From positions 1 to 60,257 of the forward strand of contig JARRRL010000023.1 of the NCBI GenBank assembly GCA_037380725.1: a DNA stretch of 60,257 nucleotides, given 5' to 3'. The notes under the pieces were generated by a model. The model was not told where the DNA came from, did no database searches, and worked only from the letters and a program-made list of their open reading frames with translations. This stretch comes from Gammaproteobacteria bacterium (lineage in GTDB: Bacteria > Pseudomonadota > Gammaproteobacteria > Pseudomonadales > JANQJO01). A program made the translations under genes and the position numbers. Shown here piece by piece: positions 12,592-57,825 of the stretch. How positions within the stretch are numbered: position 1 is the stretch's first letter; every line of letters begins with the position of its first letter.

Positions 12592-13222
12592 ATGCTGGTT
12601 CAGCACGACAACGCAAATACTCAGAACACCAATCGTCATTTAAAACCAATTTGCGGATACCGTCTTAACAAGCGAGTCGGTCATCTCTTTTCGCGCCAAT
12701 CGCTCATCATCAGTGTTTTCTACGCCTTCTTCACGCTTTTCAGTCATTCTGCTCAGGCGGCTGAAATATACATCTACGAAAATCAGTATGGCGAAAAGCT
12801 ATTTGCGGATCGCCCCCTGCATAAAACCGGTTATCGACTGGTGCGACGCCAAGGCTCAAACGACGCCAGCACCGGATCCAGCACTCATCAAAGCCGTCAT
12901 TCACGCTGAATCCGCTTTTGACCCCAACGCCACATCTCGTGTTGGCGCCCAGGGGCTGATGCAGCTCATGCCCGCTACCGCGCGCAGCCACGGCGTCACC
13001 AATTCCTATAATCCGGAACAAAATATCATGGGTGGCAGTAAATATTTGCGTTACCTGATGGACAAATACGACGGTAACTTGTCCATGGTGCTTGCGGCTT
13101 ATAACGCGGGTGAAGGGCGCGTCAGACAATACAACGGCATTCCGCCCTTTAAAGAAACTCAAAATTACGTCAAAAAAGTGATCCGCCTGCACCAAAAATA
13201 CACCGAAGCGCACGACGCTTAA
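12592..13222 (+). pseudogene. lytic transglycosylase (signal peptide + DUF4124-like + SLT domain) split over two frames
   Basis: Frame 1 (12550/12592-12909) gives signal peptide ...FTLFSHSAQA and AEIYIYENQYGEKLFADRP. Frame 2 (to 13222) gives the SLT catalytic region LIKAVIHAESAFDPNATSRVGAQGLMQLMP...AAYNAGEG. The two parts only join with a 1-nt shift between about 12812 and 12875. Confidence 0.7.
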
Positions 13223-13349
13223 GCAACCTTCGTCGATTTTTTTAATTATCTTTATTTTCAATATATTATAGATGTCGCCTTGTCACTTTAAACCAACAAA
13301 TAGGCATTTCGGGAGGTTATTTCATTCACATTCCTAAGCGGCGCACTTT

Positions 13350-13835
13350 TCAGTGTCCGCTTGAGCTTTTTGTTATTTCTTTTTCTTTGGCCAAATTTTT
13401 GCAAGCGTCTTGATTGCTTGTGAACACTAATTTTTTATAAAGAAGCCATTGATAAGACACTTCATCGCATACAACATAACGTTCCTCTTCCAAATATGTG
13501 CCGGTCAGATAGTGCAATACGTGGGGCAGTATAAACATTAACGAGACCCCCATTAAAGCACTTCTAGTAATACCCCTTGTTATTTTACTTGTAAGACTTC
13601 GCCTTAATACACCTTCGTAAAATATCGCGAAGGTCAATGAAGCCAATCCAATACCGGCTCCAAGCATATATAGTGAACCCTTATCGAAGTACACTGCTAG
13701 CGCTTTTGAGGAAATTGAATCTACAATGTCGTATGCACTCCATGCAAACCAAACGAAACAGGCCACCGTCATTAAGAGGAAAAGAAAGAAACCACTGTAC
13801 CTGGCTAAAGCGGTAGGACTACTTTGCGTACTCAT
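13350..13835 (-). CDS. small polytopic membrane protein (about 4 TM), family not recognised; low-GC gene
   Basis: ORF 13350-13871. Probable start MSTQSS (13835). Hydrophobic segments FFLFLLMTVACFVWFAW, LYMLGAGIGLASLTFAIF and ALMGVSLMFILP. Visibly AT-richer than its flanks. Confidence 0.5.
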   Translation of the reverse strand: MSTQSSPTALARYSGFFLFLLMTVACFVWFAWSAYDIVDSISSKALAVYFDKGSLYMLGAGIGLASLTFAIFYEGVLRRSLTSKITRGITRSALMGVSLMFILPHVLHYLTGTYLEEERYVVCDEVSYQWLLYKKLVFTSNQDACKNLAKEKEITKSSSGH

Positions 13836-13867
13836 ATTAGTAAGCCCTGGGCCTATTTGATAAAAAA

Positions 13868-15259
13868 TCACAAAGTACGATAATAACCGTTCAAGGCCGC
13901 CACCCGATACGCTTCCGCCATGGTGGGATAATTAAACGTCGTGTGGGTAAAGTAACGCAGCGAGTTCGCTTCCCCTTTTTGACTCATGATGGCTTGACCA
14001 ATATGAACAATCTCCGCCGCTTGATAACCGAAACAATGAATACCCAAAATCTCATACGTTTCACGATGAAACAAAATTTTCAGCATCCCCACCGTTTCAT
14101 TGCTCAATTGAGCGCGCGCTAAGGTTTTAAAATGGGCTTTGCCAATCTCATAGGGAATTTTTTCTCGAGTCAGTTCCTCTTCCGTTCTGCCTAATGAACT
14201 GATTTCCGGTAAGGTATAAATGCCAACCGGGACATTCGAGACGTAAAATTTATCCTCTGGGTGAGCAATGGCAGCCCCCACCGAGCGGCCTTGATCATAG
14301 GCCGCACTGGCCAAAGCCGGCCACCCCACCACATCACCCGCTGCGTAAATATGCGGCACGTTGGTTTGGTAATCCTGATTAACCTGAAGCTGCCCACGAT
14401 TATTGGCTTCCAAGCCAGCCAATTCCAAACTTAAAGTATCGGTGTTGCCCACTCGACCATTGCACCACAACATCGCGTCGGCTTTAATGCGTTTGCCCGA
14501 CTTCAGGTACAGCGTTATCTTGTTGTCATCGCCCTCGACCTGCTCGTACACTTCACCGTGTCGAATCACAACGCCCACTTCCCGCAGGTGATAACTCAGC
14601 GCTTCAGAAATTTCTTGATCCAAAAAATCCATCAGGTGTGCGCGCGTATCAATCAGCTCAACCCGCATGCCCAAACCACAAAATATGCACGCGTACTCAC
14701 AGCCAATCACACCCGCACCATAAATAATAATTTTTTTAGGATCGAAATCCAGCGACAAAATGGAATCACTGTCAAACAAACGTGGCAAATTAAAATCAAC
14801 ATTGGGGGGGTGATAAGGTCGCGATCCCGTACAAATCACGATGTTATTGGCTTTAAGCGTTTCCGTGACACCTTCACCTTGACACACTTCAAGGGTGTGC
14901 GGGTCCACAAAGCGCGCCTGGCCAAAATAGAGTTTTACCCGATTTTTCGCATAAAAAGACGTGCGCAAATCAACTTGCTTCTGAATCACAGCCTCAGCAC
15001 GCTTCAGAACGCGCGCAAAAGAAAAGTTACGCGGTTCGCCGATGTCTCGGAACATGTTGTCCGTATTAAAACGGATAATTTGCTGTACAGCATGACGCAG
15101 GGCCTTAGAAGGAATCGTCCCCCAGTGCGTACAGTTCCCCCCTACCGAACCCTGATCATCGACAACCGCTACCCGCAAGCCCTGTTTTGACGCTCGCATG
15201 GCGCACCCTTCACCAGAGGGGCCAGCACCGATAATCACTACATCGTACTGCGTGGGCAT
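13868..15259 (-). CDS. sthA: soluble pyridine nucleotide transhydrogenase
   Basis: [18 protein letters not shown]...[19 protein letters not shown]... follows the SthA/UdhA N-terminal pattern. 463 aa. Confidence 0.9.
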
Positions 15260-15363
15260 AATTCACGTCCTTCACTCACTCATTTTCTCACCCAAGCACC
15301 AGCGACCTCACCATACCGGTCTCGCACCGCTGCTCACATTAGCTCCAACAATTCGCCCGCCAC

Positions 15364-15603
15364 CTAGAGCGGATGGGCTAATTGACTGGCACGCGCCCGT
15401 TTCGCTTTTGCGTCATCGTTATCATCATCGCCATCGCAAGACCCCGTCGTCCGGCCACAGATTTTACACTCGCCGTTCAAGCCAATCGCATTTAAACCGC
15501 CACAAGAACCTTTTAACGGTTTCCGACCACACAGAACACCAACCGCCATGGCCGCAATCACAAACAACATCACAAACAGTGTAATACCAAAGATCACCAT
15601 CAT
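15364..15603 (-). CDS. nqrM: (Na+)-NQR maturation protein NqrM
   Basis: One TM (MMVIFGITLFVMLFVIAAMAVG) then a Cys-rich tail GSCGG...GECKICG...GSC. Sits directly downstream of apbE, as in other nqr loci. Confidence 0.8.
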   Translation of the reverse strand: MMVIFGITLFVMLFVIAAMAVGVLCGRKPLKGSCGGLNAIGLNGECKICGRTTGSCDGDDDNDDAKAKRARASQLAHPL

Positions 15604-15657
15604 CGTCGTCACACCTCTTCGTCTTAACACTTATTGGAAGTTGAATCGGACTTACAC

Positions 15658-16932
15658 TTAGTGATGCTGAATATAGTCGCGTGCCTGTGGTGTTATCGTT
15701 TCAGTATACGCACCATCGTCATCACGAGCGATAAAGATAACCGGCAGGCCATACCGTTCCGCCAACTTAGGTCCTTCAATTGGACCCGCCACAAGCAATG
15801 CCGTCGCCCACGCATCGGCCCACGCGGTGTGAAATGACCACTCGGATTCCAGTAATTTTAACGTTTGCTGGTTCAACCCTGGCTGGTTCAACCCTGGCTG
15901 TTTTAACCCTGGCCATTCTAACTCTGACAACTTCAACTTGGCCGGTGCCATGACCGTCGTGGATACCAAGTGATGCGTGACCGGTCGCCCTGTGCTCGGG
16001 TCAATCGTATGGGAATAGCGTTTGCCGTTGTATTCGAAAAAATTTCGATAATCGCCGCTGGTGGCAACCGCCGTATCTTGCAAGGCTACAATACGCTGCA
16101 CACGCCTCACACCCGCTGTTGGCGACTCCACCGCAATGCGCCATGGCTCGCCATTCGGCTTCACCCCACTCGCAAACACTTCTCCTCCCACTTCCACCAT
16201 AAAGCGGGTAAACCCCAAGTGGCGCAGTAAACCAACCACCTGATCCACACCAAATCCTTTCGCGATTGCCGACAAATCGACTGAAACCGGTTTCGATTTG
16301 CTCAATTGATACTGCACATGCGCTGAATCGATGGTCACACTTTGTAGTGTCAAAGACGTAAATCCAATACCTTGGCGTCGTGCTTCAATCTCACTATCGC
16401 TCGGCAGCGTCTCGCGTCGCCCTTGATTTCCAAACCCCCACAATTCAACCAAAGGCCCAACGGTGACATCAAAGCGCCCACCTGACATAACGCTCACTAG
16501 CTTGGACACGGTCAGCACCGCATAGGTTTCTCGTGACAGGTTGATCGGCTGATCCACACCCATTCGGTTGAATTGCGAAATTTCGGAGTCAGGCTGATAC
16601 GTTGACATCAACGCATTCACCCGCTCCAATCGATCGGTAATGCGCTGCGCCAACTCGTTTTTCGACACGGAAGATTCGTTTTTCGACACGGAAGATGGCG
16701 CAGAAGGAAATACTTTCACCGTGTAGCTGGTTCCCATTGTACTACCCGTGAACCGCCATCCTTCTGAATCGATGCGTGCCGTATCGTGCTCTGGAGACAG
16801 ATCCGCAACGGAGACCAGAGCTTCCGTCGCGGTTGAATCCATCGCTGAATCCATTACCGCGTGTCCATCACAACTGGTCAATATCAAATAGATCAACACG
16901 TAGCCAGCACGTCGAAACACAGAACGCATCAC
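15658..16932 (-). CDS. apbE: FAD:protein FMN transferase ApbE, with in-frame repeat insertions
   Basis: ATSGDYRNFFEYNGKRYSHTIDPSTGRP and ADAWATALLV motifs, lipoprotein-like N-terminus (LILTSCDG). 424 aa, longer than typical ApbE as I recall it (about 340-350 aa). Confidence 0.9.
   Translation of the reverse strand: MMRSVFRRAGYVLIYLILTSCDGHAVMDSAMDSTATEALVSVADLSPEHDTARIDSEGWRFTGSTMGTSYTVKVFPSAPSSVSKNESSVSKNELAQRITDRLERVNALMSTYQPDSEISQFNRMGVDQPINLSRETYAVLTVSKLVSVMSGGRFDVTVGPLVELWGFGNQGRRETLPSDSEIEARRQGIGFTSLTLQSVTIDSAHVQYQLSKSKPVSVDLSAIAKGFGVDQVVGLLRHLGFTRFMVEVGGEVFASGVKPNGEPWRIAVESPTAGVRRVQRIVALQDTAVATSGDYRNFFEYNGKRYSHTIDPSTGRPVTHHLVSTTVMAPAKLKLSELEWPGLKQPGLNQPGLNQQTLKLLESEWSFHTAWADAWATALLVAGPIEGPKLAERYGLPVIFIARDDDGAYTETITPQARDYIQHH
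15866..15914. repeat. tandem repeat, 3 x 15 bp, inside apbE (encodes PGLKQPGLNQPGLNQ)
   Basis: tgctggttcaaccct / ggctggttcaaccct / ggctgttttaaccct / ggcc. Confidence 0.95.
16656..16697. repeat. tandem repeat, 2 x 21 bp, inside apbE (encodes SVSKNES SVSKNE)
   Basis: cgtttttcgacacggaagatt / cgtttttcgacacggaagatg. Confidence 0.95.
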
Positions 16933-16979
16933 ACCCTCTTACTTACATTACAAACACGATCACAAACAGCAGGGCTTCT

Positions 16980-17021
16980 AAAAAATGGAAGGGCCTTACG
17001 AGATTTATCCCGTAAGGCCCT
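16980..17021 (-). terminator. intrinsic terminator after nqrF
   Basis: Minus strand: agggccttacg-ggataaatct-cgtaaggccct followed by tccatttttt. 11-bp GC-rich stem plus T-run, about 55 nt after the nqrF stop. Confidence 0.75.
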
Positions 17022-17074
17022 GAGACCCGAAAAGCCCTGAGAATTAGCTGCTAACACCTCACACAAATCACTGC

Positions 17075-18304: not shown

Positions 18305-18439
18305 AACGCTTTCCCACACCCAATACGATACAACCCATCAAGACACGATGAAACGCGACCAGCCGCCTACGCATCATACGCACCCGTTTTTCACTGCTTC
18401 ACTTCACATTTTTTTCTGTCCCAACTGCGGATCGGCGAG

Positions 18440-19051
18440 CTACAGAGACACACCTGAAAAAGACATGAAACCCAACGACATCAGTCCCACCGTGATAAAC
18501 GTAATGCCCAATCCACGCAGTCCTTCTGGCACATCGCTGTATTTCAGTTTTTCCCGAACACCCGCCAACACCACGATCGCCAAGGCCCAACCGGCTCCAG
18601 ATCCGAAACCAAAGACCACACTTTCTGGAAAATTGTAATCCCGTTCAACCATAAACAGTGAACCACCCAGTATGGCGCAGTTCACTGTGATTAACGGTAA
18701 GAAGACACCCAAAGCGTTGTACAAGGACGGCACATACTTATCCAAAGCCATTTCCAGAATTTGCACCATGGCAGCAATAACGCCGATGTAACTCAATAAG
18801 CCCAAAAAGCTCAAATCTACGCCCGATACCCCTAACCAAGACAAGGCATCTTCTCGCAGCAAATAATTGTAAATAACATTATTAACCGGCACCGTAATGG
18901 TTTGCACCACCATTACCGCAATACCCAAACCCATTGCCGTCTTGATTTTTTTCGACACAGCAATGAAGGTACACATTCCCAAGAAAAAAGACAGGGCCAT
19001 GTTTTCGATAAAAACGGACCGAACCAACAAACTCAAATAATGTTCAACCAT
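18440..19051 (-). CDS. nqrE: Na+-NQR subunit E
   Basis: 203-aa polytopic RnfA/NqrE-type protein ([29 protein letters not shown]...). Confidence 0.95.
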
Positions 19052-19080
19052 TGTTATTCTCCAGCACTGTTATAAACGGC

Positions 19081-24814: not shown

Positions 24815-25525
24815 TTATGTCATCCGCGATGACCTATTTTTGGATGACTTCGCGCTGCTCGATTTATCACCACTGGACCGTTTAGCGCCTGATTTTGTTT
24901 TTGGTGGGGATGCCGTACTGCTAGATGGTTCCTTCGTCTCAGCACACACGGTCTCAGTACACATGCCATCGGCTTGAACGGACGATGACTCAGGCAACAC
25001 AGCAGCCCGCTCCGCTTTAAGCGCCATTACTTCATGCTCTAAGCGCGTTAATTGATCAATTAAACGATCCATATCTTTTTTACTTGGAATATTCAAACGC
25101 GCTAAGGCAAACGACACCCGCTCATCGAAAACCTTTTCAATGCGATCAATCGAAGTGCTTGCTTTATCTTTGACTTCCTCGACTTTACCCCTAACCTCGT
25201 TGACTTTATCTCGGTAAAAGGACCGTTGTCGATCAACCAGATGGCGCGTTCTCTCTTCCAAACGTTCGCCATCCTTTACTAAGGTATCAAACCACTTGGT
25301 GCCTTCATTTTCGACTTTCGTGTATGCGCCCAGACCCGCTAACCAAATCTGCTCCGCCACGTCTTTTATTTTTCCACTAAAATCCGCAAATTGATCACTG
25401 TCTCCACCGTATACTGGATCGTGGTGCTCCGATTTGGCGCACTCATCATGCCCATCCACATCAAAACGGCGCTCGACGCCGACACCATTACTCGGCGTAC
25501 TCGCTTGTTCTTTTTCACCGCTCAT
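24815..25525 (-). CDS. PHA granule-associated protein (phasin, PhaF/PhaI family) with Ser/Lys-rich tail
   Basis: IWLAGLGAYTKVENEGTKWFDTLVKDGERLE...FDERVSFALARLNIPSKKDMDRLIDQLTRLEHEV matches the PHA_gran_rgn pattern. Start at MSGEKEQ (25525); the ORF extends to 25594. Confidence 0.75.
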   Translation of the reverse strand: MSGEKEQASTPSNGVGVERRFDVDGHDECAKSEHHDPVYGGDSDQFADFSGKIKDVAEQIWLAGLGAYTKVENEGTKWFDTLVKDGERLEERTRHLVDRQRSFYRDKVNEVRGKVEEVKDKASTSIDRIEKVFDERVSFALARLNIPSKKDMDRLIDQLTRLEHEVMALKAERAAVLPESSSVQADGMCTETVCAETKEPSSSTASPPKTKSGAKRSSGDKSSSAKSSKNRSSRMT

Positions 25526-26085: not shown

Positions 26086-26104
26086 AGCGACCTACCTCCT
26101 CCCT

Positions 26105-26384: not shown

Positions 26385-27550
26385 ATGCCACGTTCATCCG
26401 TTGAAAATCGCTTCACCAAATCCCACAAACTCGACTCGGTCTGTTACGACATCCGCGGCAACGTGTTCAACACAGCCCGCCGTATGGAAGAAGAAGGTCA
26501 CCGCATACTCAAACTGAACATCGGTAACCCCGCGCCATTTGGCTTTGACGCACCGCAAGAAATTCTGGAAGACGTCATTCACAATTTACCTCGCTCCACC
26601 GGTTACTGCGACTCCAAAGGCCTCTTTTCAGCGCGCAAAGCGGTCATGCAATACTACCAGCAAAAAAACGTTAAAGACGTCAGCGTACAAGACATCTATT
26701 TGGGCAATGGGGTCTCGGAGTTGATTGTGCTTGCCCTACAAGCCCTGCTCGATATCGGTGACGAGGTGCTGATCCCCTCCCCCGACTATCCACTCTGGAC
26801 CGCCTCTACCGCACTGGCCAGCGGACGCCCCGTACACTATCAATGCGATGAATCCGCCGATTGGCATCCCGACATTGAGGACATCAAACGTAAAATCACG
26901 TCCAACACGCGAGCCATCGTCATCATTAACCCGAACAACCCCACCGGCGCTTTGTACAGCGATGAATGCTTGCTCGCCATATTGGAAATCGCACGCACCC
27001 ATAATTTGTTGGTATTCGCCGATGAGATCTACGACAAAATTCTTTACGATGGCCATACCCACACGGCTGTCGCCGCTCTCGCCGAAGATCTGACCGTCGT
27101 CAGCTTTAATGGTTTATCGAAAGCGTACCGCTGCGCCGGTTTCCGTTCCGGTTGGCTGCTGATTTCAGGCAACAAGCACCAAGCACGCGGCTTTATTGAG
27201 GGTCTGGATACCCTCAGCTCCATGCGCTTGTGCGCCAATGTGCCATCACAACATGCCATTCAAACCTCGCTGGGTGGATACCAAAGCATTAATGACCTGG
27301 TGTTACCCACAGGCCGATTATGCCAACAACGTAACGCTGCTTATGAGGCCCTGATGGCCATTCCCGGCATTTCGTGCGTCAAGCCCAAGGCTGCCATGTA
27401 CCTCTTTCCCAAAAGATTTTGGTGGTGCACGGCTCTGGCTTTAACGTCCCAACACAAGATCATTTTCGCGTCGTGTTTTTGCCGAATGAACTCACTCTCC
27501 GCGACGCGATTGGACGCATCGGACGCTATCTGGAAACCATCAAACGTTAA
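26385..27550 (+). pseudogene. alaA: alanine/glutamate-pyruvate aminotransferase AlaA-like, with internal deletion plus frameshift
   Basis: Collinear with my recollection of E. coli AlaA from KSHKLDSVCYDIRG...LKLNIGNPAPFGFDAP...NGLSKAYRCAGFR to KPKAAMYLFPK (frame 0, to about 27413). The conserved C-terminus KILVVHGSGFNVPTQDHFRVVFLPNELTLRDAIGRIGRYLETIKR* continues in frame 2 and ends at 27550. About 22 codons (the IDAKRF...LDFLLQE equivalent) are missing. The frame-0 read-through to 27674 looks like non-homologous sequence. Confidence 0.75.
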
Positions 27551-27616
27551 CGAAAGCGTTAAAGTTAAAGATAGAGTTGAAGTTGGAGTTGGAGTTGGAG
27601 TTAAAATTGAAGTTAA
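27545..27616. repeat. degenerate hexanucleotide array (AGTTRR)n, about 12 units
   Basis: cgttaa cgaaag cgttaa agttaa agatag agttga agttgg agttgg agttgg agttaa aattga agttaa. Starts at the alaA stop codon. Confidence 0.85.
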
Positions 27617-27631
27617 GAGGACCGTGCTCGA

Positions 27632-28099
27632 ATGCTCGATGACTTGCACATTACCGATTTTTGTAAAGACGTAGCCCGTTTGTTGTTGTTGCTGCATCAA
27701 CAATTTCCTCGTCTTGTGGAAATTTACGTGTGTGACGTCATCGGCCACGAAGAGCCGGATGAATACGGCCTGTACTCCACGCGCCATGAATCGTGCCTAT
27801 CGACCTTATTGTGGTTAAAAGCCGAAGGCTGGTTGCGATTCGGCAACGTGGTTCGGCGTGAAGCCGTTGACCAATGCGTACTGACACAGAAAGCATTTCA
27901 ACATTTACACCACACGCTACCGGATGCCTTGGCGGAACTGGTTCTGTGTTCCACTTCCGACATGGAACAACAGCACAGCGCCGCCATTCGTCTCATTCAT
28001 GGCCTGCATCATGCCCATACCGAGCAACGCTCCGAATTGTTGGAAAGCATCGTGATGCATCTACTGGCCCATGACGCAAACAGCGATGGCCAAACATGA
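27632..28099 (+). CDS. hypothetical protein (155 aa), possibly winged-helix-like
   Basis: Clean ORF with an ATGA overlap to the next ORF. I recognise no motif, so the fold guess is weak. Confidence 0.5.
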   Translation: MLDDLHITDFCKDVARLLLLLHQQFPRLVEIYVCDVIGHEEPDEYGLYSTRHESCLSTLLWLKAEGWLRFGNVVRREAVDQCVLTQKAFQHLHHTLPDALAELVLCSTSDMEQQHSAAIRLIHGLHHAHTEQRSELLESIVMHLLAHDANSDGQT

Positions 28100-28919: not shown

Positions 28920-30371
28920 ATGCCGCCTTATTCAAATCCATCTCAAAGAGCTCCTAAAAAATCTTCAGCTCCAGTTAAGCGAAGATCTCCTAAGAAGCAC
29001 ACCCGGAGAACTACGCAAGATACAAATACAATGCGCTTCCCACGCAATGATCCTGCTTTTTTGGAAGAAATCAAATCACTCATTTGCAATAAAAGCAACG
29101 ATGTTGAACAGGAATCCCCAACAGGAGGACCACACAAACTCAAACCGCTCAAGTCCAAGAGACGCCTCCCCCTCGCCATTTTAGCCATTTTAGCCACCCT
29201 GTGCGCTCATCAAAAAATAGAAAAGATGAATAAGAAGCACAATGATGCCATAAACGAAGACAGAAAGCTGGATTTTGTGAACCGATTTGACGCTTTGTGC
29301 AAAGCAAAATCAAAAGAAGTGGCCTTATCAGCCAGAACGCAAAGCGTCATGTCTGCTTTCTTTCTCGTCGCTGGCGCGGGTGTCACCGCCGCCTTGACCA
29401 TTGGTAGCTTCGGTATCGCCGCCCCCATCGCGCCACTCATGGGCATCGGCATTTCTTTAGGTGGCATCGTACTCACGAACTACCTGGTCGAACGAGTCTT
29501 TCCCAAACAAACTGCAAAAGAGCAAGGCAAGGAAAACGGATACAAAGAGATTGAACTCCATGCGAGAAAGATCGCCAATAAGATATTGGAGCGGCTGCCC
29601 ATTCAAGAAAACGAGGACATGGAAAATAAAGAGAAAAAGGAAGCCAAGAAGGCACACGAGCAACTGAACGGCGTGCTCAGTTACTGCCACAAGCCCGATA
29701 AGAATAAGAATGATTACACGAAATTGTCCGAAATACTCTCCCTGGACGACAACCCAAACCTCGATAAAACAGTGATCAAAAGAAAAATTAATGAACTCAT
29801 CGAAATCAGAAAAAACTGGCAGAAAAAATTAAAACAAAACGAATCTCAATATGAGCAGGCCTTCGAACCTCAAAAGCAAGCCATTGACGAAACCGTACAA
29901 ACGTTTGGCAAAGTGTTCTGGTGCGCATGGCTCATCGACAAGAAATACGATCCCGGTTATCAGAAAGATCGCGGACTCCCACTGGGTGAGAAAATCAAAG
30001 ACGAACTGGAGCACTACAAGCTGTTAGACGGCATTGGCAGCAACATTTTTTTCAGACCGGAATATACCACAGCCCAACTCCTCCGATACGCATTCGCCAA
30101 ACGAGACAAAAACGGAAAAAAACACATAAAACTCAACAAATCTCAAGAAAAGAAAAAGGCCGAAGTAAAGAAAAATCAAGAACAGCTGTATAAAAAGGCC
30201 GAGAATTTCTTAATAGACACAGCCCCAGACCCCCTAAAAATACGCCTCTATAAATACCGGGAACAAAAACGCCAGAATGAGCCGACCGAAGACGACTTAC
30301 TCAATCTGGCCATCGAATTCGCCTTCCCAAGCATGAGAAACACACCATCAACCAGAGCGAGCACACAATAA
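28920..30371 (+). CDS. Lys/Glu-rich protein with one about 50-aa bilobed hydrophobic segment, unknown function; low-GC gene
   Basis: 483 aa. SVMSAFFLVAGAGVTAALTIGSFGIAAPIAPLMGIGISLGGIVLTNYLV is flanked by highly charged K/E/N-rich sequence. Start uncertain (alternative MRFPRNDP). Confidence 0.55.
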   Translation: MPPYSNPSQRAPKKSSAPVKRRSPKKHTRRTTQDTNTMRFPRNDPAFLEEIKSLICNKSNDVEQESPTGGPHKLKPLKSKRRLPLAILAILATLCAHQKIEKMNKKHNDAINEDRKLDFVNRFDALCKAKSKEVALSARTQSVMSAFFLVAGAGVTAALTIGSFGIAAPIAPLMGIGISLGGIVLTNYLVERVFPKQTAKEQGKENGYKEIELHARKIANKILERLPIQENEDMENKEKKEAKKAHEQLNGVLSYCHKPDKNKNDYTKLSEILSLDDNPNLDKTVIKRKINELIEIRKNWQKKLKQNESQYEQAFEPQKQAIDETVQTFGKVFWCAWLIDKKYDPGYQKDRGLPLGEKIKDELEHYKLLDGIGSNIFFRPEYTTAQLLRYAFAKRDKNGKKHIKLNKSQEKKKAEVKKNQEQLYKKAENFLIDTAPDPLKIRLYKYREQKRQNEPTEDDLLNLAIEFAFPSMRNTPSTRASTQ

Positions 30372-39309: not shown

Positions 39310-41386
39310 TCACCTTTCCTCTTGACGGTCAAGCAGCTGACCGTCAAAGCGAAGGGTATTCGTCAGTTCAGCTTGGCGACACGTCTTCGGATTCTCAAAA
39401 GCCACGACAAACATCATGGGCGTTCGGCGCGGATCCCCATCCACCACACCGATCACACGTAAATTAATGTGAATCTCTTCATGCGCATGGCGCACACACA
39501 CATTCGTGTAAAGCACATCTTTTTTGGCCTCCGCCGCTTTGTGTAATGCCGTGGAAACCGGAATCAACAAATCATCAACCACCAAATCCTGAATATGCAT
39601 GCTGGCTTTCCCACTGGTTTTCTCAGATGGACAGGTATGCAGGAACGACCGTAGATCACCGAAACTGTGCTGCACTTGAAAATACGCATTCAACACAAGG
39701 CACGGCGGCGCATAGCAATCAACCAAACGGTTGCACACCCGCGCCAAGGTCGTCCGCCAATCGCGCATCCAGCACGTCAAAGTAACTGTGGAAATCCCCC
39801 ACACTTTCCGAAACACCTAAAAATAACAGCCCTTCCCATTTTAACGCAGCGTGCATGGAAGCCAGCACCCTTTTTTGCATCGAATGTTGAAAATAAATCA
39901 GAGTGTTTCGACACGAAATCAAATCTATACTTAGAAACGAAGGATCGGTAATCATGTTGTGCATCACAAAAATTACCATCCGACGTATGGCCGCGCTCAA
40001 GACATATCGCTTGTCTTTCCAGGTAAAGTAAGACGCCAGACGCTCCGCCGACACATCTTGCCGAATGTGTGCCGTAAACGTCGCCGCAGCGGCTACTGTT
40101 AGCGCATCCGCATCCACATCCGTGGCATAAATAGTAATGGGAACACGCTTCCCCAGGCGGCGGCACTCTTCATCCGCGATTATGGCAAACGAATACGCTT
40201 CTTCTCCTGTCGAACAACCCGCCACCCAGATGCGCACACCGGTTTCAACAGAGGCGGCTTTAATCAAAGCGCGAATTGCTCTTTTCTGCACACAACGAAA
40301 CGCCTCATCATCGCGAAAAAACCGCGTACTCCCCATTAACAACTCGTTCATCAGAATTGACAATTCGTCCGATGACTCGCGCAAACAGTGCACGTAATCG
40401 TTCAAACTGTGCAACTGCTTGATGCCCATGCGCCGCTCAATACGCCGCGCAATAGTGGTGTGTTTGTAATACGAAAAATCAATTTTTTTCTTTTTCCTCA
40501 ACAAATCAAAAATCTGAACCATGCTGTCCCGCTGATCGTCTATGGCAATCCGCAAGCCCCCATCTCCCTGACGAATCAAGGGGTGCTTAATAAACTTCTC
40601 CAGCGCAGAACCGATGTCCTCAACGGGTAAACACAAATCGACTAAGCCCGACGCCATCGCCCGATCCAGCACAAGCCCACGTGCATCGCCACGAGAGGCC
40701 TGAACAATAACCATACCGTCGGCTTCTTTTAACGCGTGCGCCCCACGCACACCATCATCGCCGACACCCGATAAAATAACCCCAATAGCCTGATGTGTTT
40801 TTTCATCTGCTAAGGTGCGAAAAAACTGATCAATCGGATAGAGTGAGCATCCAGAAGCGATGTCATTTAAATACCAACGCCCTGCTACCAGGCGCACGTT
40901 TTGGCTTGGTCGAATGAGATACACCGAATTAGCTGAGATCTCGATGCCCATTTCTACCGCTTGCACCGGCATAGCGGTGTATGTCGACAAGACTTCAACC
41001 TGTATCCGTTGACAATCCGGCGTCCCGTGTTGCACCACAACATACGCCGCCCCCATATCGGACGACAAAGACCCAAACAATTTCTGTAACAGGTCCAAAC
41101 CAGCCATCGAAACGCCTATACCAACGATGTGGCTCGGTTGCTTTCGCGCCACACCTTTATCGAGCACACTCAAACGCGTCGCGAGCGGTATCGCACTGGG
41201 GGCACCAACATCACTCGCGCACTCCGTACTCGATTCTAATTTAACCCTTTTATTTACAAGCTGTTCTCGACCCGCTGCTGCCCTATCTCCTGCTGCCCTA
41301 TCTCCGGCTGCCCTTTCCCCCACGCCGCTTTCCAAAGCGAGTGCGTCCAATCTGTCTGCCGGTGATGGTATTTCGTTTTTATTCAT
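39310..41386 (-). pseudogene. CheB-methylesterase / CheR-methyltransferase / PAS-like fusion protein, frameshifted
   Basis: ORF 39719-41386 carries a CheB-like region (VVQHGTPDCQ..., VILSGVGDDG) and CheR (RIWVAGCSTGEEAYSFAI...ATDVD...ISCRNTLIYF) and ends ...YFDVLDARLADDLG*. The usual downstream domain (YAPPCLVLNAYFQVQHSFGDLRSFL...MMFVVAFEN) continues in the +1 frame as ORF 39310-39816. Confidence 0.7.
41276..41320. repeat. tandem repeat, 3 x 15 bp, inside the cheB/cheR fusion (encodes AAGDR x3)
   Basis: tgctgccctatctcc / tgctgccctatctcc / ggctgccctttcccc. Confidence 0.95.
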
Positions 41387-48287: not shown

Positions 48288-49361
48288 GAGATAGCTCGCT
48301 CATTGCAAAGAAAACATATGCTCTAATATCAATTCATCTAAATTCTCATCTATATTTAAACTGCTTACTCATCAAACGATTATCATAAACTGAGGTATCA
48401 TGAACGACAGTGTCTCCCTGGGATCACAGTGTGATCACGCTGTGATCATACATAGCAAAACGATAACGCAGTCAGTAAGCTCAGCCAAGCTCCCTTAAAA
48501 CTAATCGTAATTCACATTTATTTTTTGAACGATTCGACTACTCTATTTACAACATCTACTTACACTCGACTCGCCTTTAAAGCGTATTTCAAGTGCTCTC
48601 CCAACACACACAACTCCCAACATAACCGAAACAGGGAACATAAACATCACTTTAAGTAGCAATTTTTCCTGTGATTCTGTTAACAAAGCGATATAGAATG
48701 CCTTCCACTTGCTATGATCCTATTCAAGGGCCGCGCGTACAGTTACACACCGGCACAAAATTGCTACCACATAACACACTCCGACATCCGTCGCACTCAT
48801 CATGCATCACAGTTGAGATTTGCACATGTCTGAACAATAATTCGCTCCAACACCATGTTAACCGGATTGTTCGTTGGATGGTGTACATACGCGTATTCAT
48901 GAACCAACAGCGAACTTTAATGGACGCCAATAATGCAGATCAATCGATTCTGTGAGGGTTTACTCAACTTTCTCCAGGCATCACCGACCCCTTTTCATGC
49001 AACACAAACCATGGCGCTAGCCCTCAAACAAGCTGGCTTCGAGTACTTAGATGAGCACGCCGACTGGAGACGCCTCAGTCGCGGGGATTACTTCACGACG
49101 CGTAACGATGCTTCCATCATCGCTTTTCGTCTTGGAGAACCCCACCAAAACGGCAGCGACGCCTACGCGCCCAATCGATCACCACATCGTTCACAACTGG
49201 GTTTCAATATGATCGGCGCTCATACAGATAGCCCCGGATTAAAGGTAAAACCCAATCCCGATCTGTGTCGCAGTGGTTACTGGCAGTGGGGCGTCGAAGT
49301 GTACGGCGGTGCCCTCATGCACCCGTGGTTTGATCGAGATTTATCCGTCGCCGGGCGCGTT

Positions 49362-49467
49362 CACTATTCGTGGACTGCACCGCCCCGGACAGTCCATATG
49401 GGCTATCGTTGGCAATGCGGATCGCGTCCTCGTCGTCCTCATAGCCCATAAACAACACCACACACGC
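49362..49467 (-). pseudogene. aldehyde dehydrogenase gene fragment embedded antisense at the apeB break
   Basis: Minus-strand translation [38 protein letters not shown] matches the conserved ALDH C-terminal region (pattern ...DEAIxxANDxxYGLxxxVxSxDxERAxR). Confidence 0.6.
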
Positions 49468-50647
49468 TCAAACGGGTTTTACTGGAACATCTCAGCCAGA
49501 TTGCACATCAATTGCCGCAGGAAATCCTGGATTTTGATCTGTTTTTGTACGACACCCAAGCGCCTCGCCTCATTGGCATGGAGCAAGAATTTATTGCCAG
49601 CGCCCGGCTGGATAACCTACTCAGTTGCTATATTGGCCTATTGAGCCTGCTAAACGCTGACCCGAAACAGCGAAGCCTGTTGGTCTGCAACGACCACGAA
49701 GAAATAGGCAGTCAATCAGCCTGCGGCGCCCAAGGTCCGTTTTTAGCCGACACATTACGACGCCTCTTTACCTCACACGAACAATACTGTCGATGCATCG
49801 CACAGTCTTTTTTCGTGTCGGTGGATAACGCGCACGCGATTCACCCCAATTACCCAAACCAACACGACCCTCAGCACGCTCCGATGATGAGCCACGGGCC
49901 AGCCATAAAAATAAACGCCAACCAGCGTTACGCGACAACCAGCGAGACCAGCGCCATCCTTCAGCACCTCGCGCAAACCTTGCAGGTTCCCACTCAAACG
50001 TTTGTCAGCCGCTCAGATCTGGCTTGCGGCAGCACCATTGGTCCGATCACCAGCACCAAAATTGGTGTAAAAACCGTTGACATTGGCATCCCACAACTCG
50101 GCATGCACTCGCCGCGCGAACTGGCCAGTAAAACTGATGCACACGATTTATATCGATTGCTCAACGGCTTCTTGAATATGTCCACGCCATACTTTAATGG
50201 CGGGATTCGCACCGGCATACTGGATCACACCAAACACAGCCACACGCCTCTGGATAATCACGACGCGCTTGACCATACGGCAGCGCCCTGCCCTCCAGAC
50301 TCCGATCTCAGTTCGCCTTTCAGCCCCACCTTCTCAGAAGGCTCAGAACAGCATCAGAGCAAACGCGATAACAACGACGACTTTAGCGACAACAATTACG
50401 ACTTTAACAACAAAAACAACGCTACTGACGACACTTTCACTGATAACAAGATCACTGACGACAAGGTCACTGATAACAATGCCATCGATGATGACAACAA
50501 CGCCTTCGACACCAAAAACCGCACACCGCGTAAGCGACGAACCCCTCGAGGAACGTCTCGAGGAGCATCCCGAGGAGAACGTAACCGCAACCATGCATCA
50601 CCACGCAGTACTGTGCAACACGCTCAACATGACACCGATCAAACGCC

Positions 50648-50707
50648 ATTGCAGCCAGAAGCATCGCAGTCAGAAGCATTGCAGTCAGAAGCATTGCAGT
50701 CGAAAAC
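50648..50707. repeat. tandem repeat, 4 x 15 bp, in the apeB tail (encodes EASQS/EALQS)
   Basis: attgcagccagaagc / atcgcagtcagaagc / attgcagtcagaagc / attgcagtcgaaaac. Confidence 0.95.
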
Positions 50708-50906
50708 AGTGCACTCAGAAGACAAGCCAGAGGAAAACACCAACCCAGCAAGCACAGAAGCAAGCCGGGAGCACGACGCTTCTCACGTCGACGCTTCTCA
50801 AGTCGACTCCAAAACGGAGGATTCCCAATAGCCGTATTTGCAACTGCAAAGACCCAGCCCTGGGACAGGTCATATCGTGTAGCGCGTAACAGCAGTACCG
50901 GTGACG

Positions 50907-52963: not shown

Positions 52964-53051
52964 GACGCACTCTCCTCTCTTTCGCTCGCTGGCTATGACT
53001 CATTCGCTTGAATTGGCTCCCTTCCTCTCAAGCCAGCGCCACAACACACCG

Positions 53052-53075
53052 CTTTATACCTCACTTTATACCTCA
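53052..53075. repeat. tandem repeat, 2 x 12 bp
   Basis: ctttatacctca / ctttatacctca. Confidence 0.9.
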
Positions 53076-53322
53076 CTGTTCGGTACACTTTTTAACCTCA
53101 TTACAACGGGGTTCGACTGAATCCATGTCGATTTAGCCTTTGAAAGTATTGGACTATACCACTACCATCAGATCAATTGCGGTGACGCACGCAACAGAAC
53201 AGGAACTAAAAGATTAGTGTTACAATCAAAAAGCACTCAGACTTGAACCAAAAGGCTTCAATCACATGCCTGCCGAAATCAAAGAGGGCCTGACTTGAGC
53301 CGCCAGTTGATTGATCGACCTG

Positions 53323-53358
53323 TTACCGTATGGGTTTCCGTATAGGTTACCGTATAAG
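53323..53358. repeat. tandem repeat, 3 x 12 bp
   Basis: ttaccgtatggg / tttccgtatagg / ttaccgtataag. Confidence 0.9.
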
Positions 53359-53502
53359 TCGATGATCCAAACCCTGCGGGCCGCCCATCCGGCACAGCCC
53401 AACAACGACTAAAGTTGAGTTACATGTCCAACATTACCACGGTATTTTCTCGAAGAATCAAACACAGCGCACCCGGCATCAAGCGTGACATCCTTGAACA
53501 AT

Positions 53503-53562
53503 GCTTTGAAAAACAATTCTTTGAAAAACAAGGTCTTGAAAAACAAGGCTTTGAAAAACAAG
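53503..53562. repeat. tandem repeat, 4 x 15 bp, just upstream of the probable prc start
   Basis: gctttgaaaaacaat / tctttgaaaaacaag / gtcttgaaaaacaag / gctttgaaaaacaag. A degenerate fifth unit lies at 53491-53502. Confidence 0.95.
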
Positions 53563-53594
53563 GCCCCCACTCACGCACACCTTTCCAGAGGCGC

Positions 53595-55751
53595 ATGCCG
53601 TCGTCTCTTCGGCGAATAGCCGCCCGACTCTACCTCGGGACATGGTGGGCGCTGGCGGCTACACTGACAACGACTTTAGCGCCAAACGTATCCATCGGTG
53701 CTTTCGAATTGCCAACAAACTTGAAGGAAATTCCCTTCAAAAGCTTGGCACCCATCCCCACACACAAAAAAACCAGCTCATTGATATTCAACGAATTATA
53801 CTATCGACACTACCGTTCTCTAACCGTAGACGATCACCTGTCGGCACGCGTATTCGAACGGTACCTGAGTCACCTGGACCCGCAAAAATATTACTTTCTT
53901 GCTTCTGACATTGCGGAGTTTGAGCCGTACCGATTCGCCTTAGACGACGCGCTCCAATCCAGCGAATTAGCGCCCGGCTTCACCATTTTCAATCGCTATC
54001 AACAGCGGCTCATTGAGCGACTGGTTTACGCCTTAGATTACATAGACAACGAACTGCCCAAGGCCACGTTTTCCGGTGATGGTCTGATTCAGGTGGACCG
54101 CAAATACGCCTCATGGCCCAAAGACGAGAAAGCGTTGAACGCCCTTTGGCGTGATCGATTAACCAACGCCGCGTTAACCTTGAAACTGGCTGACACTCCT
54201 CCGAAAGAAATCATTGAAACATTGCATAAACGTTACCGCAGTCAACTGCAACGTATTTTGCAAACCAAAAGCGAAGACGCGTTTGAACCGTTCATCAACG
54301 CCTTCGCGCAAACCTACGACCCACACACGCAATATTTATCACCTCGAACATCCGAAAATTTTAACATTAACATGAGCCTTTCTTTGGAAGGCATTGGCGC
54401 GGTGCTGCAAAAAGAAGACGAATACACCAAAGTCGTACGTCTCGTATCCGCTGGCCCAGCAGACAAGAGCAATCAGTTAAAACCAGCTGATCGCATTGTG
54501 GGAGTGGGTCAGGGCAATGACGGCGATATCATTGATGTTATCGGTTGGCGTATTGATGAAGTGGTCGATCTCATTCGTGGTCCCAAAGACACGATTGTCA
54601 CGCTCCGCATTATCCCCTCCTCCGCACAAAGCGACTACGACACCAAGCTCATACACATCCGTCGTGACTTAGTTAAACTGGAAGACCAAGCCGCTAAATC
54701 GCACGTTATCCAGGTGAAACGCGCTAAGCACACCCTGAAAATTGGCGTGATTGATGTCCCGGCGTTTTATGTGGATTTTGCCGGCGAACAACGAGGCGAT
54801 GAAAATTATCGCAGCACCACTCGCGACGTAAAAGCTTTAATCGCTCAATTGCAAGCGCAACACATTGACGGTTTAGTCGTCGATCTGCGCAACAACGGCG
54901 GCGGTTCATTGAGCGAGGCCAACCAACTGCTCGGCTTGTTCATTCGCCAAGGACCTACCGTACAAATCAAAAATAACAAAGCCCGCATAAAAGTACTCCG
55001 TGATCAAGACGCCGCCATTTACTACGACGGCCCAATGGCCGTATTGGTCAATCGACTGAGCGCCTCGGCTTCGGAAATTTTTGCCGCCGCCATTCAAGAT
55101 TACCGACGCGGCTTGATCATCGGTTCCCAAACTTTCGGCAAGGGCACTGTGCAAGCGCTGCGCGCGTTGGACCATGGCCAACTCAAGATCACACAAGCCA
55201 AATTTTATCGCATTTCCGGCGACAGCAGTCAGCATCAAGGTGTCCTGCCAGACATCGAGTTCCCCAACTTGCACGACATCAGTGAGATTGGCGAAAGCGC
55301 CTTGGAGAACGCCTTGCCCTGGGACAGCATCCGATCCGTCAAACACGATTATTATTACAACATTCCAAAAATCATCAAGCCTCTGACCCAACAACACAAT
55401 GCACGCATTCAAAAAAATGCCGATTACCAATATTTAATAAAAACCTTGGCGGCCAATCGCAAATGGGAAGATAAAGAATGGCTGTCTTTGAACGAGAAAA
55501 CGCGACAAGCTGAACGCCAGCAACGTCGCCAAGAACAATTGCAATTGCTGAATGAAAAACGCAAAGCCAAGGGCGAAAAACCGTTAAAAGCCTGGCCAGA
55601 TGAAGAAGTGGATTCCCAAGAAGTACTGAGTGAATTTAACGATGACGAGCAAGATGTTACTCAAGACGTGCTGCTCAAGGAAGCCAGCGAAGTCTTAACG
55701 GACCTCATCACTCAATCCTCGCCTACCGCTCTGACGCAAACGGGTGGCTAA
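53595..55751 (+). CDS. prc: C-terminal processing (tail-specific) protease, S41 family
   Basis: MPSSLRRIAARLYLGTWWALAATL signal peptide at ATG 53595, PDZ region, S41 motifs LVVDLRNNGGGSL, SASASEIFAAAIQDY and GSQTFGKGTVQ. ORF-track start 53415 (TTG) would translate the 15-bp repeats. Confidence 0.9.
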   Translation: MPSSLRRIAARLYLGTWWALAATLTTTLAPNVSIGAFELPTNLKEIPFKSLAPIPTHKKTSSLIFNELYYRHYRSLTVDDHLSARVFERYLSHLDPQKYYFLASDIAEFEPYRFALDDALQSSELAPGFTIFNRYQQRLIERLVYALDYIDNELPKATFSGDGLIQVDRKYASWPKDEKALNALWRDRLTNAALTLKLADTPPKEIIETLHKRYRSQLQRILQTKSEDAFEPFINAFAQTYDPHTQYLSPRTSENFNINMSLSLEGIGAVLQKEDEYTKVVRLVSAGPADKSNQLKPADRIVGVGQGNDGDIIDVIGWRIDEVVDLIRGPKDTIVTLRIIPSSAQSDYDTKLIHIRRDLVKLEDQAAKSHVIQVKRAKHTLKIGVIDVPAFYVDFAGEQRGDENYRSTTRDVKALIAQLQAQHIDGLVVDLRNNGGGSLSEANQLLGLFIRQGPTVQIKNNKARIKVLRDQDAAIYYDGPMAVLVNRLSASASEIFAAAIQDYRRGLIIGSQTFGKGTVQALRALDHGQLKITQAKFYRISGDSSQHQGVLPDIEFPNLHDISEIGESALENALPWDSIRSVKHDYYYNIPKIIKPLTQQHNARIQKNADYQYLIKTLAANRKWEDKEWLSLNEKTRQAERQQRRQEQLQLLNEKRKAKGEKPLKAWPDEEVDSQEVLSEFNDDEQDVTQDVLLKEASEVLTDLITQSSPTALTQTGG

Positions 55752-55877
55752 CCTGCGCCACAACAAGCGCTGAAGCAAAAAATGAAACAAAAAATGAATC
55801 GCATGGAAGAGATGATGAACCAGATTCTCAAGCGACTCAGTCCAGAAGGAAGTTCAAATTCGCAATCACCTAACGAT

Positions 55878-56087
55878 TCAGCAGACAACACCAAAAAGTC
55901 TTCCGCTAATAAAGTAGTGATCGCGCCCCATACCAATCCCTGCACCCGCACGGAAACGCGTTCCGCGCTGTCGCACAATAATTGTGCCCGCTTGAACCAA
56001 CTGACCACCAAAACGCTTAACACCCAAACGCTTGGATTCAGAATCGCGACCATTGCGCGTACTACCGCCCGCTTTCTTGTGAGCCAT
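55878..56087 (-). CDS. rpmA: 50S ribosomal protein L27, C-terminally aberrant (69 aa)
   Basis: [57 protein letters not shown] is canonical L27. After GRDH it reads [12 protein letters not shown] instead of the usual TLFA..DG.VKFE...-type 28-aa end. Confidence 0.8.
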
Positions 56088-56147
56088 TATTCACCTCATT
56101 CTAGCTATCGTTTGCAGCCATCGCTGCAATAACAGTCAAAGCCGATA

Positions 56148-56459
56148 TCAGCCAGCAATACCCGTAATTTTAATTTCGGTGTACCATTGGCGATGCCCCG
56201 CTCGACGCATGTAATGCTTGCGACGCCGAAACTTAATAATATTAATTTTTTCACCACGGCCATGAGACACAATCTCAGCCGTTACTTTCCCCGAATCCAG
56301 ATAGGGTTTACCCACTTTTGCCTGACCGTCACCGCCCACCAGCAGCACGCGATCAAACTCCATGGTTTCACCTGGTTCACCTTTGAGCAACTCCACAGCA
56401 AGGGTTTCACCTTCAGATACCTTATGCTGCTGCCCACCCGTTTCAAAAATTGCGTACAT
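56148..56459 (-). CDS. rplU: 50S ribosomal protein L21
   Basis: [20 protein letters not shown]...[28 protein letters not shown]. Start at 56459; the ORF extends to 56513. Confidence 0.92.
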
Positions 56460-56507
56460 GGTTCTCACCCTCAAGACGCGTGACGAATGCTTGTGTCTTT
56501 TATAATC

Positions 56508-56537
56508 GATCAATTAACTGACAAATCAAACCATTTC
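56508..56537 (-). promoter_or_regulatory. candidate sigma70 promoter for rplU-rpmA
   Basis: Minus strand TTGATT, 18 nt spacer, TTATAA, about 45 nt upstream of the rplU ATG. Pattern match only. Confidence 0.35.
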
Positions 56538-56607
56538 GCGCCACAAATTTTGCTCAATTGAGCTGTTTCAATCCAACATCATCCCCCAGCGCCACGCCGT
56601 CATGCTC

Positions 56608-56637
56608 ACACGCCATAGCCCTACACGCCATAGCCCT
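56608..56637. repeat. tandem repeat, 2 x 15 bp
   Basis: acacgccatagccct / acacgccatagccct. Confidence 0.95.
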
Positions 56638-56858
56638 ATTAGACCCATCACTCAACAGACCCATTGTTCAAATCTTAAATGATGAAGACAAAGCAGACCC
56701 GTGATCCGGAGGCAACCACAAGACGGCGTATTCTACGGCTTACAACGACTCGCATCAAGGGATTTGTTCCCTTCCTGCTTCCCATCCCGCTTCAAACACC
56801 AAGCTATCTCACCGTTCAACGCGAAAGAATCGTGACGCCTTGTAAGTCATTGAGTAAA

Positions 56859-57825
56859 ATGCGCAGACAAACTTACCAACCTGAAAGCATCTCATTTCAC
56901 GACATTATTGCGCCCGTTCACGCAGACTTTGCGGCTGTGGATGCCATGATTCAGGCTTCACTGCAATCGGACGTACCACTGATCGCCGAGATCAATGCTT
57001 ACTTAATCAACAGTGGGGGAAAACGTCTACGTCCCTTGATCGCCCTACTCTGCGGGCAAGTGATGGGATCGGCGGATGACGCTCGACAACACAAACTGGC
57101 CACCGCCGTTGAATTTTTACACAACGCCACACTGCTTCATGACGACGTTGTTGACAGCTCCAATCTCAGGCGGGGGCGCAAAACTACCCACACGGTGTGG
57201 GGAAACGCCACCAGCATTCTCGTGGGGGATTTTCTGATCTCACGCTCTTTACAGCTGTTAACGCAAATTGACAGCATGCCCATATTGCGTGTTTTCGCCG
57301 AAACCACCAATTTGATCGCCGAAGGTGAAGTCCTGCAGTTGCTACACTGCAAAAACCCAGAGACCAGTTTGGCGCAATACCAAGAAGTGATAAAACGCAA
57401 AACCGCCGCCATGTTTGAGGCCGCGGCACGTGGCGCCGCCATGATCGCCAACGCCTCACCACCCACCGTGGAAACCGTATCGGCCTACGCCCTGCACCTG
57501 GGCAACGCGTTCCAAATGATTGATGACGCCCTCGACTATGGCAGCTCAACCGACGATGCTGGCTTTACAACAGGCTGACCCCAATGACGCCGCTTTTTTG
57601 CGCAAGCTGTTATCGAACACACCAAGCACCGGCGATCAGAGCGACAAGTCTTCACTGCTACAAGGCGTCCACATCGTCCGAAACTGCGGCGGAGTCACGG
57701 GAACCCTGCACCTAGCAGCACAAGAAATCAACCATGCTTTGTCACAGCTCAGCGTCGTACCCCCAAGCCCAAGCACCACTGCACTGGCGCAACTCGCCCA
57801 CTTCACCTTGCAGCGCCAACAGTAA
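56859..57825 (+). pseudogene. ispB: octaprenyl-diphosphate synthase, with internal deletion plus frameshift
   Basis: GGKRLRPL..., first LLHDDVVD and second FQMIDDALDY aspartate-rich motifs lie in frame 0, which stops at 57578. The conserved C-terminus (MLALQQADPND...IVRNCGG...LAQLAHFTLQRQQ*) is in frame 1. The GKNxGDDLxEGKxTLP block expected between them is missing. Confidence 0.8.

Follow-up and report, generated by a model that had tools for sequence, protein, structure and literature searches.

Frame-disrupting lesions in conserved genes of a metagenome-assembled genome are very probably assembly and scaffolding artefacts

Sodalis glossinidius and Mycobacterium leprae are pseudogene-rich bacteria that became host-restricted recently. 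In genomes of this kind the lesions are reproducible, and indispensable single-copy genes are spared. The 60,257-nt stretch of DNA analysed here (the window) resembles them in having many frame-disrupting lesions in conserved genes beside intact neighbours. However, in the present genome rpmA, ispB, metG, ftsH and nadK are all affected, and the lesions vanish or change between assemblies. The window also resembles the local misassemblies and chimeric joins of metagenome-assembled genomes (MAGs), with irreproducible lesions, N gaps or contig ends at matching coordinates in sibling assemblies, fillers of 82–122 nt from other organisms, and scores for completeness (91.5%) and contamination (0.67%) that the lesions leave unaffected. 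It differs from these in an unusually high density of lesions and in the lack of N marks at the joins. Our comparisons of the deposited sequences suggest that the lesions are very probably artefacts of the assembly or scaffolding of a MAG.

The window is the largest of the 323 contigs of this MAG, and its GC content is about 49%. A first-pass annotation had described lesions in six genes: an SLT-domain transglycosylase gene, alaA, a cheB/cheR-PAS gene (cheBR), apeB, rpmA and ispB. Open reading frames, Pfam coverage and junction coordinates all agree with this description (Table 1), including its account of about 22 codons lost plus a frameshift in alaA, about 55 codons of apeB replaced by foreign filler, a replaced 3' end in rpmA, and a loss plus shift in ispB. 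The nqr, sthA, gor, msrB and prc genes, which it had called intact, are indeed free of frame-disrupting indels; the comparison of these neighbours shows a single indel, which comprises 9 nt, keeps the frame and lies at the nqrE 3' end (18596). We found two further lesions, a loss of 97 nt at 56879/56880 and one of 42 nt at 29508/29509.

Table 1. Affected genes, junctions and foreign tracts in the window (positions of the window; a dot marks a feature given without strand)
Feature	Position	Strand	Remarks
SLT-domain lytic transglycosylase gene	12592..13222	+	Pfam SLT; split into two frames
alaA-like aminotransferase gene	26385..27550	+	Frameshift; Aminotran_1_2 match ends at profile position 308/361
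Lesion hotspot inside the 28920-30371 gene	29452..29523	+	From comparison with the sister MAG
CheB-CheR-PAS fusion gene	39310..41386	-	Frame broken at 39761/39762
M18 aminopeptidase gene apeB, long low-complexity C-terminal tail	48933..50831	+	Interrupted at 49368-49449
Foreign 82-nt filler in apeB	49368..49449	-	Minus strand encodes an aldehyde-dehydrogenase-like peptide (antisense to apeB)
rpmA as read in the window	55878..56087	-	69 aa; canonical only to GRDH (residue 57)
Foreign 122-nt filler, piece of an unrelated ORF	55795..55916	.	Unique in the genome
ispB 5' junction 56879/56880	56866..56893	+	97 nt absent, including the true ispB start (ATGAAAAAAATCGTACCCCCCCCC...)
Divergent ispB tract	57453..57556	+	About 75% identical to the sister MAG; flanks at least 99.9% identical

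The window was compared with a sister MAG (GCA_037380665.1, contigs L011 and L020), a third MAG (GCA_037380785.1, contigs L016 and L064) and further contigs of the same population, namely one each from Logan SRR13768060 (L012) and Logan SRR13768062 (L063) and a JGI contig (L013). The flanks of the lesions are 99.6–100% identical between the window and the other assemblies of the species. At the window's lesion sites four genes (SLT, alaA, rpmA and ispB) are intact elsewhere in the species, SLT and ispB only in MAGs that probably share one study and pipeline. The SLT gene is read here as two ORFs (12550-12909 and 12713-13222); compared with the sister MAG, which has the intact gene (218 aa), 26 nt are missing at 12873/12874. 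The alaA gene lacks 67 nt at 27412/27413 and is intact, with 410 aa, in the third MAG (L016) and in the Logan contig L063; the 56 nt that are absent from the sister MAG (L020) overlap with this deletion but do not coincide with it.

In rpmA, the L27 profile is covered only up to position 56/79, since the 122-nt filler displaces 159 nt comprising the last 30 rpmA codons and the terminator common to prc and rpmA. An intact 87-aa L27 is encoded both by the Logan contig L012, with flanks that are 100% identical, and by the sister MAG (L011). The 97 nt missing from the 5' end of ispB are present in the JGI contig L013; the sister MAG lacks a different but overlapping stretch of about 86 nt. Further downstream, a net loss of 56 nt at the divergent tract shifts the ispB frame, and the polyprenyl_synt profile is covered to position 199/251. 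In the sister MAG a single frame runs across this site (a 311-aa call, ...LGKNIGDDLAEGKITLPLL...), but the call is without its own 5' end. Neither rpmA nor ispB was found a second time in the genome.

At the remaining two genes, cheBR and apeB, the sibling assemblies are interrupted by N or by a contig end. The sister MAG (L020) carries one N and an additional 9 nt at the cheBR site, and the contig of the third MAG (L064) stops 30 nt beyond the junction, with a reading (...DARSRLYRKSSR) that agrees with homologues. Judged from these alignments, the cheBR frame break apparently arose where two contig ends were joined without a mark. In the protein collection searched, the only same-species copy of cheBR is truncated at a contig end, and we found no full one. 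In apeB, the 82-nt filler takes the place of roughly 165 nt. Positions 119–204 of the M18 profile are absent; homologues (P0003 and P0004) show what is lost, about 55 residues. The sister MAG (L011) has real apeB sequence at the filler position (AIHLNRNVNEN...), together with a gap of 17 N and a deletion of its own. No intact same-species apeB was found in the protein collection, the closest entries being relatives at 71% and 68% identity, and none of the JGI contigs carries native apeB sequence across the lesion.

The set or the form of the lesions differs from assembly to assembly and is not a stable property shared by independent samplings. At six loci (alaA, 29.45 kb, cheBR, apeB, the prc/rpmA terminator and the ispB 5' end) the sister MAG has different deletions of its own, less than about 100 nt from those of the window. 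At 29.45 kb, for example, the 42-nt loss in the window is in frame, and the sister MAG, where the gene is split into 155 and 295 aa, lacks 31 nt at 29452-29482. No other assembly on record contains the alaA and L27 products in their broken form.

We also looked at the junctions themselves. In the two clean deletions checked, SLT and alaA, the microhomology amounts to 0–1 nt, as expected of blunt abutment. Microhomology-mediated deletion, whether by replication slippage or by k-mer collapse, was rejected for both on account of these values. The sequences foreign to their loci (the antisense aldehyde dehydrogenase fragment, the piece of an unrelated ORF and the homeologous ispB tract) have no other copy in the genome. 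Searches with the fillers against the whole assembly (blastn and tblastn) returned only the fillers themselves, which are also unlike each other. Local inversion, an MDA-type chimera or swapped pieces were dismissed because no filler copy exists elsewhere in the genome. The fillers are not related to the lost sequence, nor do they match it when it is reversed, complemented or reverse-complemented. The aldehyde-dehydrogenase-like filler has no exact match among the JGI metagenome contigs or the species-representative genomes.

The lesions are not confined to the window. In a genome-wide census, a check that had been proposed alongside a comparison with relatives, frame-split orthologues numbered 14 of 185 (7.6%) in this genome versus none of 216 in G001, a relative from the same family. 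The excess is not due to chance (Fisher p = 1.5e-5). Among the split genes are metG, ftsH, nadK, gltB and speE. The split copies of metG, ftsH and nadK are the best matches to these genes genome-wide, and for ftsH and metG an intact additional copy was not found. At ftsH, which lies outside the window, this genome is without 77 nt and the sister MAG is without another 66 nt, 33 nt away. Within the window the density is about eight lesions in 60 kb.

The observations are very probably accounted for as follows. The assembly graph of the population would have been broken at certain places, and short contigs would have been joined end to end with no mark of a gap. Such ungapped joins would lose 10–100 nt of real sequence each. 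Three of the joined ends would have borne a spurious tip of 82–122 nt from another organism, which would give them the look of foreign filler. The responsible step of the pipeline may have been a scaffolder, a gap closer or N-stripping, and the failure of the same loci across MAGs might stem from strain-level branching of the graph or from drop-outs in coverage. A literature search on the run and assembly accessions found no paper.

The first-pass annotation had offered two explanations, systematic assembly errors and an early stage of reductive evolution, and had regarded the former as a serious competitor given the lesions in rpmA and ispB. This judgement was borne out, as independent contigs contradict the consensus. 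The part on assembly errors is supported by the intact genes, by the N gaps and contig ends elsewhere and by the foreign fillers; the comparison with relatives that it had proposed found sibling assemblies intact, gapped or differently deleted at the lesion sites. The part on reductive evolution is not supported, in view of lesions that are not reproducible and that affect essential genes. Genuine pseudogenisation in a host-restricted bacterium would place the lesions in the chromosome itself, and it is true that they sit in the deposited sequence and that another stretch of the same genome has broken genes too. Nevertheless, we consider this highly improbable. Assemblies of the same population are intact at these genes with identical flanks, and the single-copy essential genes rpmA, ispB, metG, ftsH and nadK would all be dead. 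Moreover, sibling MAGs have N gaps or contig ends, and deletions of another form, at these loci, which independent mutation would not produce, and the fillers are pieces of unrelated genes. Since four of the genes are intact in other assemblies, and the remaining two are interrupted there in the same places, the evidence points to artefact and not to gene decay.

It is conceivable, though very unlikely, that most lesions are artefacts and one or two are real strain variants, such as the loss of 26 nt in SLT or a divergent ispB tract that stems from genuine recombination. At the SLT site the sister MAG is not interrupted by N or a contig end and has no further lesion, and no independent contig (Logan or JGI) covers it; SNP-dense tracts at 18361-18757 and 24869-24964 resemble real strain variation. 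However, the SLT junction is blunt and free of microhomology like those that are demonstrably artefactual, and the divergent ispB tract ends with the loss of 56 nt, which breaks the reading frame of this essential gene. It is very unlikely that the loci failing in several MAGs (alaA, 29.45 kb, cheBR, apeB, the rpmA terminator, the ispB 5' end and ftsH) are real hotspots of micro-heterogeneity in the population, that is, short hypervariable or recombining tracts of housekeeping genes at which any assembly graph would break; in that case a small share of the deletions could be real alleles. Programmed recoding, or small mobile-element insertions (RPE- or MITE-like) tolerated within genes, has practically no chance of being correct. 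Nothing speaks for it except that frames change and pieces are inserted, and it is already refuted by the unique fillers and the absent conserved blocks. From 8 to about 55 conserved codons are absent at the junctions, so that no ribosomal shift could restore the protein at any site. RPE or MITE copies would be expected to recur, but the fillers have no sequence in common with one another or with any other part of the genome, and relatives as well as sibling assemblies read these genes in one frame.

Assembly artefact remains our preferred reading, and under it the lesions constitute no biological discovery; their value is that of a quality warning. The assembly appears to serve as a species-representative genome, being included in a one-per-species set, and it passes the checks for completeness and contamination. 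Extrapolating from about eight lesions per 60 kb and from the 7.6% of tested genes, it probably contains a few hundred silent misjoins genome-wide. Other findings in the window that rest on the broken apeB, rpmA, ispB or cheBR genes have the same artefact explanation. For this genome and its sibling MAGs, caution is therefore needed with any "novel" gene fragment or fusion, and likewise with pseudogene counts, metabolic reconstructions and any case made for reductive evolution or for life as a symbiont.

The window is the entire contig C23. At 60,257 nt, it is the longest of 323 contigs in a 3.48-Mb assembly that has no contig below about 2.5 kb and whose completeness and contamination are 91.5% and 0.67%. 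Such figures are typical of a binned metagenome-assembled genome (MAG). Protein matches point to marine Cellvibrionaceae-like gammaproteobacteria, and the closest genomes compared share the family but are of different genera (apeB identity 61%). Same-species assemblies were retrieved by exact-protein look-up with intact neighbouring genes. They comprise a sister MAG, GCA_037380665.1 (a single 64.9-kb contig over window positions 3894-60257; L011, L014 and L020), the MAGs GCA_037380785.1 (L016, L064) and GCA_037380745.1 (L017), Logan contigs from runs SRR13768060 and SRR13768062 (L012, L015, L018, L019, L021, L063) and a JGI metagenome contig (L013). Lesions apart, their identity to the window is 99.6-100%. 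No publication was found for the run and assembly accessions.

The first-pass annotation had reported frame-disrupting lesions in at least six conserved genes, six of them named. All six are present in the window according to ORFs, Pfam coverage and assembly comparison, and further ones could be added (see table). The SLT gene changes frame at ~12.87 kb, and the SLT domain lies in the downstream ORF only. In alaA, the Aminotran_1_2 match ends at profile position 308 of 361 and the C-terminus (…KILVVHGSGFNVPTQDHFRVVFLP…) runs on in a different frame; a 410-aa gene is read in L016 and in the Logan contig L063. At the cheBR junction, the window reads …GATGCGCG followed directly by ATTGGCGG…, while the sister MAG (L020) has …GCGCGTTCTCGATT-N-ATTGGCGG…. 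The contig of GCA_037380785.1 goes on as …TTCTCGATTGTATCGAAAATCAAGCCGATG and then stops, its reading …DARSRLYRKSSR agreeing with homologues (…DERAKIFQKNSN…). The break at cheBR is therefore present in all three MAGs and is concealed in the window.

In apeB, M18 profile positions 1-119 and 204-431 are matched, with nothing between them. Native sequence extends to …GRVHY (49367) and resumes at 49450, and the intervening filler reads, on the minus strand, an aldehyde-dehydrogenase motif (24-residue peptide). The sister MAG has native sequence (…AIHLNRNVNENSSINPQKHLLPIL…) where the window has filler; it also has a 17-N gap and has lost the piece kept by the window. No complete same-species cheBR or apeB was found in the protein collection. 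The M18 protein also carries a long C-terminal extension, as do the relatives closest to it (lengths 711 and 638 aa, identities 71% and 68%; ordinary ApeB has ~430 aa); this looks like a genuine lineage-specific feature rather than an artefact.

The L27 protein encoded by rpmA follows the canonical sequence as far as GRDH (profile position 56 of 79), beyond which it has just 12 unrelated residues. Both the sister MAG and the Logan contig L012, whose flanks are 100% identical to the window over 2.5 kb, have 159 nt at this site, which encode the usual end of L27 (87 aa in all) and carry a hairpin terminator (AAAAAAAAGCCTCGCACAAAGCGAGGCTTTTTTT) common to rpmA and the convergent prc and lost from the window. 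The rplU-rpmA/prc arrangement is native, since it recurs in both the sister MAG and one Logan contig. The ispB match ends at profile position 199 of 251, with the C-terminus in a different frame; the sister MAG has a single frame across this site (…LGKNIGDDLAEGKITLPLL…). A search of the whole genome gave no second copy of rpmA or ispB.

Lesions and other features of the window, with frame-split sites elsewhere in its genome
Feature	Position	Window or its genome	Other assemblies
SLT gene	12873/4	26 nt absent	Sister MAG: gene of 218 aa
SNP-dense tract, nqrE 3' end and spacer to nqrF	18361-18757		Sister MAG: ~25 mismatches and 9-nt in-frame indel in 400 nt; rest 99.9% identical
Smaller SNP cluster	24869-24964		
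GACGATT-type repeat region upstream of alaA	25611-25700		Differs between MAGs
16-nt tandem unit AGTACCACGATGGGCA upstream of alaA	26244-26290	3 copies	Sister MAG: 3; GCA_037380785.1: 2
alaA	27412/3	67 nt absent	Sister MAG (L020): different, overlapping 56 nt absent
Hexanucleotide-type repeat directly 3' of true alaA stop	27550-27640	Frames read GVGVGV/ELELEL	
28.9-kb gene	28923-29039	Agrees with sister MAG and Logan contig (to 28984, its extent)	GCA_037380745.1 (L017 1265-1399): replaced segment
28.9-kb gene	29508/9	42 nt absent	Sister MAG: neighbouring 31 nt absent
cheBR	39.76 kb	CheB-CheR fusion stops; PAS-like continuation in different frame	
Deletion	about 47.5 kb		73 nt absent from sister MAG only
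apeB	49368-49449	82-nt filler	
M18 aminopeptidase	49512-50831	Extension of ~200 aa from about 50180, low-complexity, Asp/Asn/Thr/Ser-rich	
rplU-rpmA, then convergent prc, not obg	55751-56513		
rpmA	55795-55916	Unrelated 122-nt piece	
prc/rpmA terminator			25 nt absent from sister MAG only
ispB 5' end	56879/80	97 nt absent, including real start	L013: present; sister MAG: different, overlapping ~86 nt absent
ispB	57453-57556	~75% identity to sister MAG, then net 56-nt loss	
Off-window frame-split sites	C131 ~7570-7600; C97 ~7457-7553; C153 ~2328; C75 ~22440		
Other off-window frame-split contigs	C33, C170, C192, C64, C86, C87, C16, C297		

Over 56 kb, we counted 8 lesions in the window and 7 in the sister MAG, 6 loci being common to both. 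Of the four MAGs compared, three or more carry such lesions: that of the window, GCA_037380665.1 and GCA_037380745.1. The first-pass annotation had left the choice between early pseudogenisation and assembly error. Pseudogenisation, under which the lesions would be real, did not hold up: at all shared loci the exact lesion differs between assemblies, and we rejected it on finding different deletions less than 100 nt apart at six loci in genomes otherwise 99.9% identical. A cell bearing the full set, including the frame splits elsewhere in the genome (below), would be inviable. The artefact explanation was supported by the disagreement between assemblies and by Ns or contig ends at the same sites. 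As judged by contig-level comparison, the lesions are very probably assembly artefacts and not a biological feature, because independent mutation gives neither such neighbouring deletions nor Ns and contig ends, while broken assembly graphs give both. The broken alaA and L27 products have no record in any other assembly, in a look-up that may omit the window's own genome. The intact SLT and ispB lesion site are seen only in sibling MAGs, which probably come from the same pipeline.

Junctions of the clean deletions show next to no microhomology, a pattern more in keeping with contig ends joined bluntly than with slippage. The fillers (82-122 nt) do not belong to the genome, bear no relation to the sequence that was lost and are probably spurious tips on contig ends; for the aldehyde-dehydrogenase-like one, no exact match was found in JGI metagenome contigs or species-representative genomes. 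The common failure loci might reflect strain-level branching or coverage drop-outs, the former being hinted at by the divergent ispB tract and by two SNP-rich stretches, at 18.4 and 24.9 kb. The tract at 18.4 kb could be a true recombination tract or a strain-chimeric stretch.

The window's genome was searched with ORFs of 150 aa or more, taken from 594 kb of a relative in the same family (G001). Of 185 orthologues, 14 were frame-split yet colinear; in the reciprocal direction the count was 0 of 216 (Fisher p = 1.5e-5). The off-window genes are damaged in the way that the window's are and include those for methionyl-tRNA synthetase (metG), FtsH (ftsH), NAD kinase (nadK), glutamate synthase large subunit (gltB) and spermidine synthase (speE), besides asnB-like and recB-like genes, elsL, a histidine kinase and others. 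In most, 30-190 nt are missing. FtsH lacks 25 residues, as read across the gap in the G001 orthologue; 77 nt of ftsH are absent from the window's genome and another 66 nt, 33 nt away, from the sister MAG. The near-equal lengths of the two ftsH-bearing contigs (15,635 and 15,646 nt) suggest contig boundaries common to both MAGs, and therefore shared upstream data or method. The value of the result is as a warning on this genome and its sibling MAGs.
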